Positions 30,161 to 38,459 of a stretch of 39,431 nt of DNA are shown here, one piece after another. Each line of letters opens with the position of its first letter. Positions within the stretch are counted from its first letter, which is position 1. The stretch comes from Sulfurospirillum sp. (GTDB lineage Bacteria; Campylobacterota; Campylobacteria; Campylobacterales; Sulfurospirillaceae): positions 1-39,431 of the forward strand of contig JASFYR010000041.1 in assembly GCA_045047115.1 (NCBI GenBank), written 5' to 3'. Position numbers and translations under genes: made by a program. The notes under the pieces are model-generated. The model saw only the letters and a list, made by a program, of their open reading frames with translations. It was not told the origin of the DNA and ran no database searches.

Positions 30161-32435
30161 AAGAAAGAGATTCTCTGACTATTTTCACTGCTTCAACCAT
30201 ATTTTTAAGGCTCGGTATTACCTCTTTCCACTTTCTTGTTTTTAGGCCACAATCCGGATTTATCCATAGCTGCTCTTTTGGCAGGACTTCTAAAAGAAGT
30301 TTTATTTGCTTGACTATTTCATCAACGCTTGGAATTCTAGGAGAGTGAATATCATATACTCCCGGACCTACTTCTTGTTTATATCCGACTTCTTTAAATA
30401 CTCTCAAAAGCTCATTTCCGCTTCTTGCTGTCTCTATCGTGATGACATCAGCATCCATTGCTTCGATAGTTCTTATGATGTCGTTAAATTCACTATAACA
30501 CATATGAGTGTGTATCTGAGTCTCTTTTTTTGCACTGCTTACACTTAGTTTAAAGTTTTCAACCGCCCACTTCTCGTAAGCAGGTATTTTACTAGTTCGC
30601 AAAGGATAGCCCTCTTTAAAAGCCGCCTCATCAACCTGTATGATTTTTATGCCTGCATTTTGCAAATCATCTACTTCATCACTGAGTGCGACTGCTAGCT
30701 CTTTTGCAACTTCATCTCTTGGTTTGTCGTCTCTTACAAAAGACCAGTTTAATATAGTCACAGGACCTGTTAGCATGCCTTTCATAATCTTTTTGGTTTT
30801 ACTTTGTGCATAAGTGATCCACCCAACTGTCATAGGCTTTGGTCTGCTTATGTCACCATAGATGAAAGGGGGCTTTACGCATCTGCTGCCATAACTTTGA
30901 ACCCAGCCGTTTTGACTGAAACCATATCCGTTTAACTGCTCACCAAAATATTCAACCATATCATTTCTTTCCGGTTCTCCGTGAACTAATACTTCCAGTC
31001 CTGTATCTTCTTGTATAGCAATACACTCATCTATGTAATTTTTCATCTCTTTTTCATAACTCTCTTTTGAGATGAGAGAGTTTTTGTACTCTCTCCTTGC
31101 TTTTCTTATCTCATCTGTTTGAGGAAATGAGCCGATAGTTGTGGTCGCCAAATCTTTATATCCCAAAAGCTCTCTTTGAATTTTTATCCTCTTTTCAAAC
31201 TCGCATTCTCTTTGGAATTTTGTAAGATTTTGAACCCTGTTTTTTGTCTCTTGGTCATGAATTTTTTTAGAGGTTTTCCTGGTTAGATTCGCCTCTTTGT
31301 TATTTTTTAGAGTTTTAAGCTCGTTGTCGTCTAATGAGTAGATACCCTTTAAAAAGATTTTTGATATGAGAGAAACTTCATCTAGCTTCTCTACTGCATA
31401 ACTGAGCCAATTTTTGATCTCTTTATCCATTTTTTGTTCATACTTTAGGCTAAAAGGGGTGTGTAAAAGTGAACAAGATGAGCCTATGATGAGGTTGTCT
31501 CTATCAACTGTTTTGGTGATTTTTTTCAAAAGCTCCAGTGTCTTTTTGATATCGTTTTTCCAGATATTTCGTCCGTTTACTACTCCGGCTATCAGTTTTT
31601 TACCGGATGCTGCTATTGCTTCAAGAGCCTCTAAGTTATCCTCTCCATGTATAAAATCAAGCCCCAAAGCCCATATAGGAGTGTGTACCAAGATATTTGT
31701 AGCTTCATTTGAGTGCTCAAAATATGTACTAACCACTATCTTTACATGTGGAACAACGCTGCAAAGTCTGTCATAAGTCGTCTTAACAAGACTCAGTACC
31801 TTTGAATCTAAATCTTTAACAAAAATAGGCTCATCTATCTGAAGAGTTATATCATCATCCAGCTTACCGATTTGCTTGATAATATCCTCATAAACAGGTA
31901 AAATTTTAGTAAAAAGCTCATAAGTATCGCCTCTGTCAGTTCTCTTTGAGAGTCCTAAAAATGTCAAAGGTCCTATGAGATTTATCTTTGTCTTTATGCC
32001 TAACTCTTTTGCCTCTTTATATTCATCTACTATCTTTTTGGCATTTGCCTTGTAATTATCTTTGAGCGAGAGTTCGGGCACTATGTAGTGGTAGTTTGTA
32101 TTGAACCACTTTGTCATCTCCATAGCGACTCTGCTCTCGTCTCCCCTTGCCATAGTAAAGTACAATTCTTCTTCTTTTAAATCTTGAAATCTTTGTGGAA
32201 CGGCTCCTAATAAAATGGCGGTATCAAGCATATTGTCGTACAGTGAAAAGTCGTTTGAACTGATATACCCTATACCAGCCTCTTTTTGATAATTCCAGTG
32301 TCTTTTTTTGAGTTTACTTGCAACTTTTTGTACTTCATTAAATGGGATCTTTTTAGCCCAAAAACTCTCCAATGCTCTCTTTAACTCTCTTTGCTCTCCG
32401 ATTCTTGGAAAGCCTACTATATAATTTTTTGACAT
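30159..32435 (-). CDS. metE: Cobalamin-independent methionine synthase
   Basis: GFPRIG, KWFNTNYHY, HGEPERNDMVEYF, Zn ligands HTHMC and WINPDCGLKTR. Confidence 0.97.
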   Translation of the reverse strand: MSKNYIVGFPRIGEQRELKRALESFWAKKIPFNEVQKVASKLKKRHWNYQKEAGIGYISSNDFSLYDNMLDTAILLGAVPQRFQDLKEEELYFTMARGDESRVAMEMTKWFNTNYHYIVPELSLKDNYKANAKKIVDEYKEAKELGIKTKINLIGPLTFLGLSKRTDRGDTYELFTKILPVYEDIIKQIGKLDDDITLQIDEPIFVKDLDSKVLSLVKTTYDRLCSVVPHVKIVVSTYFEHSNEATNILVHTPIWALGLDFIHGEDNLEALEAIAASGKKLIAGVVNGRNIWKNDIKKTLELLKKITKTVDRDNLIIGSSCSLLHTPFSLKYEQKMDKEIKNWLSYAVEKLDEVSLISKIFLKGIYSLDDNELKTLKNNKEANLTRKTSKKIHDQETKNRVQNLTKFQRECEFEKRIKIQRELLGYKDLATTTIGSFPQTDEIRKARREYKNSLISKESYEKEMKNYIDECIAIQEDTGLEVLVHGEPERNDMVEYFGEQLNGYGFSQNGWVQSYGSRCVKPPFIYGDISRPKPMTVGWITYAQSKTKKIMKGMLTGPVTILNWSFVRDDKPRDEVAKELAVALSDEVDDLQNAGIKIIQVDEAAFKEGYPLRTSKIPAYEKWAVENFKLSVSSAKKETQIHTHMCYSEFNDIIRTIEAMDADVITIETARSGNELLRVFKEVGYKQEVGPGVYDIHSPRIPSVDEIVKQIKLLLEVLPKEQLWINPDCGLKTRKWKEVIPSLKNMVEAVKIVRESLS

Positions 32436-32488
32436 AGTTATTCCTATTAGTTTATTTTTTTGTATGTTTTATGAAAAATGTGTAAAAA

Positions 32489-32716
32489 CTAGCAGGAGAG
32501 AGGAGGGTGTACACCAGTGCGTCTAAAAGCAAAATATGTGCAGTAGTAAGGACATCTCGGTATAAATGTGTTTAAAAGCATAACCAATCTGGCTTTCAAT
32601 CTAAAGATGCAATTACAGTGACAAGGCTTTGTATTTTGCAACAAAATCTTCTCTTTTAGTGTCTTATGTGTGATTTTAAAAAAAGGGTGGATTGAGCTAA
32701 TATATAAAAAATTCAA
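32489..32716 (-). CDS. Putative metE leader peptide (75 aa, Cys-rich)
   Basis: Lies between a consensus promoter and metE; AAGGGG RBS 7 nt before TTG; six Cys; ends RRTGVHPPLSC. Confidence 0.5.
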   Translation of the reverse strand: MNFLYISSIHPFFKITHKTLKEKILLQNTKPCHCNCIFRLKARLVMLLNTFIPRCPYYCTYFAFRRTGVHPPLSC

Positions 32717-32741
32717 TTAACAACCCCTTTTTTTTTATGAA

Positions 32742-32750
32742 ATTATACCA
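32742..32750 (-). promoter_or_regulatory. Extended -10 promoter for the leader-metE transcript
   Basis: TGGTATAAT on the minus strand. Confidence 0.7.
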
Positions 32751-35949: not shown

Positions 35950-36516
35950 ATGAGTGATATTGCAAATAATTTATTTGTATATACAGACCCAGATAGATGC
36001 ATGGGTTGCCATAGCTGTGAGATAGCCTGTGCTACTTCTCATTCAGACTACGACTTGCAAACATCTGTCTTAATGCGCATAAAATCATATCCATCAAGAA
36101 ATACAGTAATTAAAGTTGGCAATTTAACTACCGTAATTCAATGTGTAAGTTGCGATGCGCCATGTATAGACCCATGTCCTATTGATGTTATCAATAGATA
36201 TGATGAATTTGGAGGAGTAGTTAAAATTGATGAGGAAAATTGTATTGGTTGTAAAGCTTGTGCAAAAGCTTGTCCTTATGATGTAATCAAAATGGTTGAT
36301 GAGATAATACCGCCAGAAAAAGAGATAGCTTTAAATGGGAAAAAGAAAAAAAGAAAAAAGAAAAAAGCTTTAAAATGTGATTTATGTTTTGACAAAAAAG
36401 GAGAAAATGGAGAATTTAACCCTGCTTGTGTAACAGCATGTCCTACGGAAGCTATAATCTTAACAAGTGATGATTTACTTCGTACCAAAGCTCTAAAAAT
36501 GGCTGGATATCTTTAG
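35950..36516 (+). CDS. cooF: CooF-like 4x[4Fe-4S] electron-transfer protein
   Basis: CMGCHSCEIAC, CVSCDAPCIDPCP, CIGCKACAKACP and KCDLC...PACVTACP; directly upstream of cooS. Confidence 0.85.
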   Translation: MSDIANNLFVYTDPDRCMGCHSCEIACATSHSDYDLQTSVLMRIKSYPSRNTVIKVGNLTTVIQCVSCDAPCIDPCPIDVINRYDEFGGVVKIDEENCIGCKACAKACPYDVIKMVDEIIPPEKEIALNGKKKKRKKKKALKCDLCFDKKGENGEFNPACVTACPTEAIILTSDDLLRTKALKMAGYL

Positions 36517-36554
36517 GATATTTATAAAAATCAATATTATTTAAAGGATAAAAA

Positions 36555-38459
36555 ATGTTAAAAAATAATAAAAGTGTAGAACCTTCCGCAATAAATTTAA
36601 TTTTTAAAGCAGAAAAAGAACATATAGAAACTGTCTGGGATCGTCATGAAGCTATGCAGCCACAATGTGGATTTGGTGATACCGGTGCATGTTGTCGTAT
36701 TTGCTGGAAAGGTCCTTGCAGAGTAGATCCTAGAGGAAATGGACCTACAAAAGGTATTTGCGGAGCTGATATTGATGTGATTGTAGCTAGAAATCTTCTT
36801 AGAAGTTTAGCTGTTGGTGCTTCTGCACACACAGAACATGCTCGCCATATAGCACACACTTTATCTGAGCTGCCTAATGGTAAAGTTTCAGCATATCAAA
36901 TTAAAGATAAAGAAAAGTTACTATCTGTTGCGAGAAGATTGAACATAGACATTGAAAATAAAGATATTATGCAAATTGCAAAAGAGGTCGCTCAAATTTC
37001 TTTAGAAGATTTTGGACGCCTAAATGGAGATTTTCACTGGGCCAATGCAATAATGAGTAAAAAAAGAAAAGAGAAACTTGATAAATTGGGAGTTTTACCA
37101 CAAAATCTTAGTGGTACTGTTGTGAATTGTCTCTCTCGTACTCATGTTGGTTCTGAATCAGACCCAGCTAATCTTCTCTCATCAGCCGTAAGTTTAGCTG
37201 TAGCTGATGTTTCTATGATGGCTATGGGTACAGAATTGTCTGATATTTTATTTGGTACACCTTCGCCAGTAATTACAACATCTAATATGGGGGTATTAAA
37301 GAAAGACGCTATCAATATAGCACTTCACGGACACAATCCTCTGCTTTGTGATGTTGTATGCGATGCTGCAGCATTAATGAATCAACAAGCTATAGAAGCT
37401 GGAGCCAAAGAAGGTATTAATATAGTTGGGGTTTGTTGCACTGGTAATGAATTAATGGAGAGACATGGTGTCCCTTTGGCTTCTAATTATTTATCCCAAG
37501 AGTTAGTTATGATTACTGGTGCTGTTGAGGCAATGGTTGTAGATACTCAATGTATTATGCCAGCAATTGTCGATACTGCCAGCAATTATCATACAAAAGT
37601 TATAACTACATTAGATGATAATAAAATAGCAGGAGCTACACATGTTTCATTTCATCCAGAGAGTGCAATGGAAAGTGCTAAAAAAATAGTTCAATATGCA
37701 ATAGATGCTTTTATCCATAGGGATAATGATAGAGTTGAAATTCCTAATGGAACACAAAAAGCTATGAGTGGATTTGGATACGAAGCTATTTTGGCTGCTT
37801 TAGGTAAAGTTAATGCTGATGACCCCATAAGCGCACTAAGTGATAATATTGCAAATGGAAATATACAAGGAATTGTACTGTTTGCAGGGTGTAACAATAC
37901 CAAAGTAGTACAAAATGATAACTATATTAAAATGGCAAAAGAATTATCCAAAAATAATGTATTGGTAGTAGCAACTGGTTGTGCTGTTGGAGCTCTTGCT
38001 ACTGGTGGCTTAATGACTCAAGAAGCAACAAATGAGTATGCTGGAGATTCTTTAAAATCTGTATTAACAGCAGTAGGAGAGGCAGCAGGACTCAATGGAC
38101 CTTTACCATTAGTTATAAATATGGGTTCTTGTGTTGATAATTCCAGAGCACTTAGACTATGTGTGGATATTGCTGATAAACTGGATGTAGACATAGATAG
38201 TTTACCAGTTGCAGCTTCAGCACCTGAAATGATGTCTGAAAAAGCACAAATTATTGGTACATGGGGAGTTGTAATGGGATTTCCAACTCATATAGGTGTC
38301 ATTCCTCCCGTAACCAGTTCTCCTTTTGTAACCAATTTTTTAACACAGGGAATGAAGGACTTATTTGGTGCTAATTTTATAGTTGAAGTAGATCCAATTG
38401 AAGCTGCTGATAAATTACTCTCTACAATAAAAGAGAGAAGATTAATTTTAGGCATATAA
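36555..38459 (+). CDS. cooS: Anaerobic Ni,Fe carbon monoxide dehydrogenase catalytic subunit
   Basis: D/B-cluster QCGFG..GACCRICWKGPC...GICG; C-cluster ligands HGHNP, CCTGNE, DTQC, GCNN, TGC and GSCVDN; AHTEH and SEKA. Confidence 0.96.
   Translation: MLKNNKSVEPSAINLIFKAEKEHIETVWDRHEAMQPQCGFGDTGACCRICWKGPCRVDPRGNGPTKGICGADIDVIVARNLLRSLAVGASAHTEHARHIAHTLSELPNGKVSAYQIKDKEKLLSVARRLNIDIENKDIMQIAKEVAQISLEDFGRLNGDFHWANAIMSKKRKEKLDKLGVLPQNLSGTVVNCLSRTHVGSESDPANLLSSAVSLAVADVSMMAMGTELSDILFGTPSPVITTSNMGVLKKDAINIALHGHNPLLCDVVCDAAALMNQQAIEAGAKEGINIVGVCCTGNELMERHGVPLASNYLSQELVMITGAVEAMVVDTQCIMPAIVDTASNYHTKVITTLDDNKIAGATHVSFHPESAMESAKKIVQYAIDAFIHRDNDRVEIPNGTQKAMSGFGYEAILAALGKVNADDPISALSDNIANGNIQGIVLFAGCNNTKVVQNDNYIKMAKELSKNNVLVVATGCAVGALATGGLMTQEATNEYAGDSLKSVLTAVGEAAGLNGPLPLVINMGSCVDNSRALRLCVDIADKLDVDIDSLPVAASAPEMMSEKAQIIGTWGVVMGFPTHIGVIPPVTSSPFVTNFLTQGMKDLFGANFIVEVDPIEAADKLLSTIKERRLILGI

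Follow-up and report, generated by a model that had tools for sequence, protein, structure and literature searches.

A conserved family of Pro-Pro leader peptides before metE and cobalamin genes of Campylobacterota, candidate ribosome-arrest regulators

We analyzed a 39,431-nucleotide stretch of DNA from Sulfurospirillum sp. (assembly GCA_045047115.1, contig JASFYR010000041.1, positions 1-39,431; hereafter, the window), in which a short open reading frame (ORF) precedes metE on the minus strand, at 32436-32750. Comparison with related loci supports a leader that is coding and conserved, carries an invariant Pro-Pro, is followed by RNA that pairs with the downstream ribosome-binding site (RBS), and marks metE as well as btu, cob and cbi genes. 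The best explanation, to which we give slightly better than an even chance, is a ribosome-arrest leader acting in cis in the role of a cobalamin riboswitch, with cobalamin relieving the arrest; here, both the stalling and the ligand are what we infer. This would provide a testable answer to the question of how metE and the uptake and synthesis of B12 are controlled in Campylobacterota, where we found no cobalamin riboswitch.

The leader locus in the window

The features of the locus are collected in Table 1. The original prediction of a promoter, an RBS and a 75-codon TTG ORF with six Cys and the end RRTGVHPPLSC holds at every position, as does the gap of 53 nt to metE, the ATG of which is at 32435. 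The -10 box is absent from the output of the promoter scan because the scan requires a -35 hexamer; no intrinsic terminator is predicted at the locus.

Table 1 Features of the leader-metE locus in the window and loci with the CCC-ATG site
Feature	Position	Strand	Remarks
Extended -10 promoter-like box TGGTATAAT	32742..32750	-	From sequence; relatives have a similar TATAAT box before the leader
Hairpin covering the leader's own RBS and start	32678..32733	-	-11.7 kcal/mol; genus-level feature
Leader RBS, AGGGG	32724..32728	-	Same-genus relatives have an SD-linked start at the same place
Leader ORF, 75 aa, TTG start, six Cys, end RRTGVHPPLSC-TAG	32489..32716	-	
CHCNC motif	32609..32623	-	Middle Cys is Cys34, 38 residues before the last Pro
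CPYYC motif	32540..32554	-	Kept in most metE-type leaders, replaced in divergent ones
FAFRRTGVHPP, candidate arrest motif	32501..32533	-	Pro-Pro invariant
Anti-SD arm	32486..32497	-	4-15 nt behind the last Pro codon, overlaps the stop codon; duplex -10.7 kcal/mol
Spacer, G-free, C-containing	32454..32485	-	Possible unstructured loop or Rho-loading site
metE RBS arm (AGGA)	32442..32453	-	
metE, cobalamin-independent methionine synthase, 758 aa	30159..32435	-	TIGR01371 1028 bits, cut-off 930
CCC-ATG loci	L023, L141, L144, L145, L149, L155-L158, L164, L165, L167, L173, L176-L178, L180-L192, L214		Before metE

The leader ORF has no match in Pfam or NCBIfam. It contains CHCNC and lacks the N-terminal GF-K-YF motif, the reverse of a 50-residue form of the family; it also lacks a signal-like N-terminus, as judged by eye, and has an in-frame start with no CCC-ATG shift site. 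In the ESM Atlas, three clusters of hypothetical proteins match the leader at 0.82, which we take as a lead only.

The hairpin over the leader's own RBS shows 8 consensus pairs in 9/9 same-genus loci, one of them with a two-sided change, and in this genus it would hold ribosome loading on the leader low. As a family-wide trait, the hairpin is unsupported, control segments having scored alike. Elsewhere in the window, at 35950-38459, an anaerobic CO dehydrogenase catalytic subunit (TIGR01702, over the cut-off) and an Fe-S partner gene lie behind a two-component pair.

A conserved coding leader with an invariant Pro-Pro

A DNA search of 41 relatives recovered metE loci that, among those listed, all carry the leader core or a recognizable variant, with one exception (L021). 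The core follows the pattern PCHCNC...IPRCPYY...FAFRR[TS]G[VI]HPP, and a profile built on it matches 123/301 genomes of the phylum; among the species genomes it finds 181 stretches, with records of Sulfurimonas, Sulfurovum, Arcobacter and Sulfurospirillum among the 80 listed. Across 110 distinct cores, 80% of the single-base codon differences are synonymous in the leader frame, a share inflated by the choice of these cores by their amino-acid motif, and the other two frames contain stops in 101/110 and 103/110 cores. A profile of the long form yields 200 representatives at E<=0.001 among 1.84 billion proteins, and the range of the family beyond Campylobacterota genomes is given by this search, whose listing carries no taxonomy. 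In all counts for the leader family, kin are included and are not independent. By these comparisons, the ORF is a conserved coding leader, and this part of the original prediction, which requires the leader to be translated and conserved, is supported.

Only two columns, P51 and P52, are invariant across 40 diverse leader cores. The stop codon lies from 1 to more than 40 codons past the Pro-Pro or is absent, with read-through into the next gene, and a Cys occurs within four residues after the Pro-Pro in only 4/164 leaders. Given that only the prolines are invariant, the tail being variable and the terminal Cys so rare, the conserved point of the leader is the Pro-Pro rather than the stop codon or the last Cys.

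These findings bear on an attenuator that would respond to starvation for Cys or sulfur amino acids through hungry Cys codons, the kind of sensing that the original prediction proposed. Its attraction is the abundance of Cys, with 3-5 in the last 45 residues of 152/164 metE-type leaders. However, these codons are located 13-40 codons before the Pro-Pro, so that a ribosome paused on them would leave the anti-SD arm free. The terminal Cys is rare and the stop position varies, as noted above; the short paralogues of 50 residues do not have these Cys codons and contain at most one Cys, and the targets are B12 genes with no cys operon among them. We consider such an attenuator hardly credible, and sulfur sensing as originally proposed is not upheld. 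A run of control codons (Cys or Met) at the switch point was not found in the 164 leaders; Met occurs in the last 45 residues of 19 of them.

Upstream of the prolines, Cys34 of the window leader is invariant in 19/19 leaders. The invariant Cys precedes the last Pro by 35 or 38 residues in 79/86 measurable representatives (35 in 42, 38 in 37), which is about one tunnel length and would place Cys34 near the tunnel exit if the ribosome stalls at the Pro-Pro. In the short form, a conserved Tyr-Phe is found 38 residues before the last Pro (22/24). This short form, the third of the family and 50 residues in length, reads MKHL.GY.KRYF and ends in TSPP, SDPP, RAPP or QAPP; at the Pro-Pro position, three paralogous leaders have RAPP and one has QAPP.

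Could the ORF instead encode a small trans-acting protein, such as a metal or corrinoid carrier, placed before its neighbors by mere operon order? The strong conservation of the 45-residue core is compatible with this, as is the fact that BtuB-like ORFs of several families begin with the N-terminal motif seen in the long leaders; in the family of the window genome and in several others, this motif is nothing more than the start of the BtuB-like ORF, perhaps the signal peptide from which the leaders arose. Nevertheless, the leader is always first in its unit, its start codons are mostly weak (GTG or TTG in 90/131 leaders), either half of it is freely lost across the family, and read-through fusions to metE or to a receptor exist. 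Together with the lack of a confident fold in structure prediction (pLDDT 60, pTM 0.26) and the co-variation of the anti-SD arm described below, these features make a trans-acting protein very improbable.

Some leaders appear to be decaying: L156 lacks the Pro-Pro and its metE is in pieces, and L319, in a small genome without metH, has an eroded N-terminal motif.

Pairing between the leader end and the RBS

The two arms (32497-32486 and 32453-32442) form 10 Watson-Crick pairs and 1 G-U pair with 1 mismatch; the recomputed pairing agrees with the 11 of 12 positions originally reported, and the helix is present in the minimum free energy (MFE) and centroid folds of the window sequence. The single-sequence fold is no more stable than shuffled sequences (z -0.55, -0.73), and the feature stands above chance because of comparative evidence, that is, protein-level conservation and co-variation of the arms, rather than because of single-sequence folding.

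When the 20 nt that follow the last Pro codon are paired with RBS regions across 98 non-redundant metE loci, the mean is -6.9 kcal/mol for the RBS region of the same locus and -5.2 kcal/mol for those of other loci (z -9.9), whereas three control segments give z 0.1, -2.5 and 1.0. A sliding co-variation scan over metE loci peaks at the Pro-Pro. Before B12 genes, co-variation reaches z -2.8 for long leaders (n=19) and -4.3 for short ones (n=23), with controls from -0.8 to 0.4, which is weaker support because relatedness alone gave z -3 to -4 in another test. RNAalifold on eight same-genus loci did not recover the anti-SD helix. In about 18% of 119 loci, a modelled stall eases RBS opening by no more than 1 kcal/mol; the calculation of stalled versus free RBS in these loci (7.0 versus 3.5 kcal/mol) is without a matched control and is not relied on.

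The spacer between the arms also has a marked composition, with C exceeding G in 78/82 leader spacers (G 4%) as opposed to 48% of 61 control spacers (G 14%). A G-poor spacer fits an unstructured loop or a Rho-loading site, and therefore termination may add to the masking of the RBS. Taken together, the comparisons support an SD-sequestering stem within the footprint that a ribosome stalled at the Pro-Pro would have. Of the original proposal that a ribosome stalled at HPP or at the last Cys codon would cover the anti-SD arm, the first part gains from the invariance of the Pro-Pro and from the co-variation of the segment behind it, and the second falls with the rarity of the last Cys.

The targets form a cobalamin regulon

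A profile derived from the metE leaders finds 170 loci (repeats of the same place included), with metE as the next gene in 163; two exceptions lie before TonB receptors for which TonB-B12 is the best model. A broader profile matches 148/151, 50/51, 45/46 and 36/46 genomes in four families, often twice. Among 20 hand-picked further matches out of 219, 17 precede TonB receptors, 2 precede metE and 1 precedes a protein of no family. The 24 short leaders are divided between TonB receptors (13, four of which were judged from their N-termini only) and cbiM/cbiK-type operons (11). Overall, paralogous leaders head BtuB-like receptors, btuFCD, cob salvage operons, and cbi operons of synthesis and cobalt uptake. 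Near the leaders, CobQ, BluB, CbiB, one CobU and one CbiM (Pfam) pass the curated cut-offs, and BtuF, BtuC, CobT, CobS, CobC, CobD, CbiK, CbiL and CbiC are below them; all TonB receptors are below the TonB-B12 cut-off, although TonB-B12 is the top model for 12/20 and 8/10 of them. By gene content, the targets of the leader family form a cobalamin regulon.

The same gene set (metE, btuB, btuFCD, cbi/cob, cbiM) is the usual regulon of cobalamin riboswitches. No Rfam family matches the window; RF00174 is missing from the window's own genome and was found in 0/150 genomes of the phylum (control, 7/14), and RF01482 and RF01689 were found in 0/5 genomes. With no covariance-model match in the genomes searched and with conservation that follows codons, a cobalamin riboswitch was rejected. 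An RNA element hidden in the N-terminal motif was likewise rejected, the variation falling at third positions, as was sensing of B12 through queuosine (QueG): the genome encodes QueH and no QueG, and the His codons divide evenly (CAT 58, CAC 52). The B12-independent QueH of this genome is at G000:C14:57509-58033, with no QueG match.

A metal-ion sensor of the CruR/CutF type, in which CHCNC would bind Co2+ or Zn2+ (the cofactor of MetE) and release the stall, would account for the Cys motif at a fixed distance from the Pro-Pro, as in CruR, and for the leaders at the head of the cobalt genes cbiM and cbiK. However, the leaders before cbiM are of the short form, which has no CxC motif, and salvage operons (cobU, cobS, cobT, bluB) need no free cobalt; genes for the uptake of zinc or other metals and genes of copper homeostasis are not among the targets read. 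We therefore regard a metal sensor as improbable.

Several genes recur near the leaders. In the window's own genome, a 673-aa TonB receptor (G000:C8:97693-99711, L244), located about 5 kb behind metH, has at its start the N-terminal motif of the leader family plus an acidic EEETPP; the same fused receptor start recurs across its own family and three other families and could represent a conserved signal peptide or a regulatory element read in frame. In many loci, the BtuB-like gene is followed by one for a hydrophobic protein of about 190 aa that matches nothing in Pfam or NCBIfam (G000:C8:99711-100280, L354:721-1302, L223:2702-3268), a candidate corrinoid transporter or accessory protein. Another protein, of about 150 aa and with a weak zf-like Pfam match, recurs in B12 operons (L354:3368-3823, L231:2259-2723, L350:3300-3746). 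A homoserine-kinase-like gene, possibly that of the threonine kinase of cobamide synthesis, is found beside cobD or cbi genes (L228:2706-3545, with similar ORFs in L337 and L354). Behind a long leader lies the gene of a 569-aa protein that has a signal-like start, matches no family and is a candidate B12-related outer-membrane protein (L236:864-2570). The leader family can also be used to locate B12 genes and leads to unannotated proteins in their operons.

Leaders follow metH, except where a frameshift site precedes them

The window's own genome has metH. The leader is present in 57/62 genomes with both metE and metH, the other five having the receptor-fused form only; in hand-picked genomes with metE and without metH, outside the frameshift lineages, a leader match was found in 1/49. 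Thus, in the genomes compared, which are related and not independent, in-frame leaders track metH.

There is one large exception. In family f12, which we take to be host-associated Campylobacter, 65 genomes without metH keep the leader, many with HCNC intact. Each of the 30 f12 loci read, 29 from these 65 genomes and one other, has an ATG-(1-2 codons)-CCC-ATG site with the leader behind it in the +1 frame (Table 1). Translation from the SD-linked ATG in the zero frame would read Met-(1-2 codons)-Pro(CCC)-Met and in most cases meet a stop within 9-18 codons; no SD-linked start opens the +1 frame of the leader. The distance from the CCC-ATG site to the end motif takes 10 different lengths, and the frame is kept in all. 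In four further loci the shift site is kept and the leader has decayed, and several f12 loci have neither. Judging from the arrangement of frames, this site is a candidate methionine-gated programmed +1 frameshift of lineages without metH; slippage to +1 is known to occur when a Pro-tRNA sits in the P site and the A site is empty, and loss of m1G37 favors it (10.1101/2021.05.27.446073). The candidate methionine-sensing element of the family is, by the same reasoning, the frameshift site of another lineage and not a feature of the window.

All these observations have to be weighed against a variant of the switch with the same arrest and the same anti-SD arm, in which the signal is the status of methionine or S-adenosylmethionine (Met/SAM) and B12 would be felt only by way of MetH. 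The two signals cannot be told apart completely from gene context because a shortage of B12 also lowers Met/SAM in users of MetH, and btuB belongs to the MetJ regulon, which counts for a Met/SAM signal. TrmD uses SAM, and one possible route would run through hypomethylated tRNA-Pro (TrmD, m1G37), with slower decoding of Pro codons and more +1 shifting as a result. Without m1G37, ribosomes stall at CCN codons and shift to +1 more often, and the leuL and ilvL leaders are triggered (10.1101/2021.05.27.446073). Such a signal would unify the terminal Pro-Pro with the CCC-ATG site of the 30/30 loci without metH and would not need a universal ligand motif. The latter point touches the main weakness of the cobalamin reading, in which no candidate sensor motif is common to all leader forms. 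On the other side, in none of the loci read does a leader precede metK, metY, metA, metF or a cys gene, and the window's own genome has no second leader ending in Pro-Pro. Cells without metH also need control of methionine, yet in-frame leaders are nearly absent from them, and the fixed spacing of 35 or 38 residues is left unexplained. We consider a Met/SAM signal unlikely, albeit the most serious of the alternatives.

A model of cobalamin-relieved arrest

Under the cobalamin-relieved arrest that we favor, when cobalamin is scarce, a ribosome translating the leader would dwell at the Pro-Pro, cover the anti-SD arm and free the metE RBS. The dwelling ribosome would also shield the spacer between the arms, rich in C and poor in G, where Rho may load. 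With cobalamin available, a corrinoid, or a factor loaded with one, would bind to the stretch of nascent chain newly emerged from the tunnel (in this leader CHCNC, 38 residues back) and release the stall. The released ribosome would then terminate, the helix would form and metE would be off. Lineages without MetH would have kept the arrest module and placed a methionine-dependent +1 frameshift in front of it: at low methionine, ribosomes would shift into the leader and stop at its Pro-Pro, thereby opening metE. The broader proposition, in which the whole order senses B12 by a Pro-Pro arrest released by a corrinoid (or a corrinoid-loaded factor) and the lineages without metH were rewired to methionine through the CCC-AUG +1 frameshift, is more tentative, and we rate it somewhat short of an even chance.

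If this model is correct, a cofactor-responsive arrest peptide would extend nascent-chain sensing past amino acids, polyamines, metals and secretion, and at CCC-AUG bacteria would have a +1 frameshift that is gated by a metabolite and decides whether ribosomes enter a leader.

Comparison with known systems

The leader family, a B12-responsive arrest peptide and a frameshift of this kind did not come up among the best-ranked listings of full-text literature searches, which covered few subscription journals. Cobalamin riboswitches (RF00174, RF01482, RF01689) resemble the proposed switch in the sequestration of the RBS as the output and in the set of targets; they differ in that the leaders match no covariance model and are conserved by codons. 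An upstream ORF (uORF) behind a B12 riboswitch has reportedly been seen in Mycobacterium tuberculosis.

Within the same phylum, Campylobacter jejuni has the leader peptides MetL, LeuL and TrpL, one of them before Met genes. Unlike the leaders described here, these are control-codon attenuators of 20-28 aa before metBA, leu and trp, with no metE leader in the portion of that account drawn on here (PMC3847290).

The conserved C-terminal motif with prolines, typical of arrest leader peptides of the SecM/RQH type, is present in the family. As in SecM, ApdA/ApdP and the RQH family (PMC10987492, PMC12992588), a stalled ribosome would unmask an SD, and some paralogues end in RAPP or QAPP, which are tested arrest motifs (PMC10987492). 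Those peptides monitor Sec/YidC or metals, and the common ends found here (GVHPP, GIAPP, TSPP, SDPP) are absent from the motif lists of the two sources (PMC10987492, PMC12992588). Leaders with RAPP or RGPP before TonB receptors have been described, with no B12 or metE connection in the portion of the source concerned (PMC12992588). CutF of Rhodobacter capsulatus shares with the window leader a Pro-rich end and, in our model, a stall that opens a stem-loop over the downstream SD; in CutF, however, stalling is promoted by Cu and depends on a Sec signal (PMC9973294), whereas the N-terminus of the window leader, judged by eye, is not signal-like. The main text of the CutF paper mentions neither Campylobacter nor cobalamin or B12 (PMC9973294).

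The closest parallel is with CruR (DUF2946) of Bordetella pertussis, a uORF before a TonB receptor in which the spacing between a Cys motif and the C-terminal Pro-Pro arrest motif is conserved (PMC9426467). There, the stall is lifted by copper at the CXXC motif, whose distance from RAPP is fixed (PMC9426467), and, as we propose here, the relief by the ligand switches the operon off (PMC9426467). CHCNC contains a CxxxC and the distance of 35 or 38 residues is fixed, but the end is GVHPP, not RAPP, and neither the window leader nor two long forms match Pfam DUF2946 up to E 1. The leaders described here further differ from CruR in the CxCxC in place of CXXC, in the spacing (35/38 against 45 intervening residues), in their targets, which are B12 genes and metE, and in the co-variation of the anti-SD arm, where CruR acts by Rho termination (PMC9426467). 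The feature in the window is real, and its leader family, of a regulator type already known, has probably not been described before; its signal is probably new, and so would be the candidate frameshift-gated variant.
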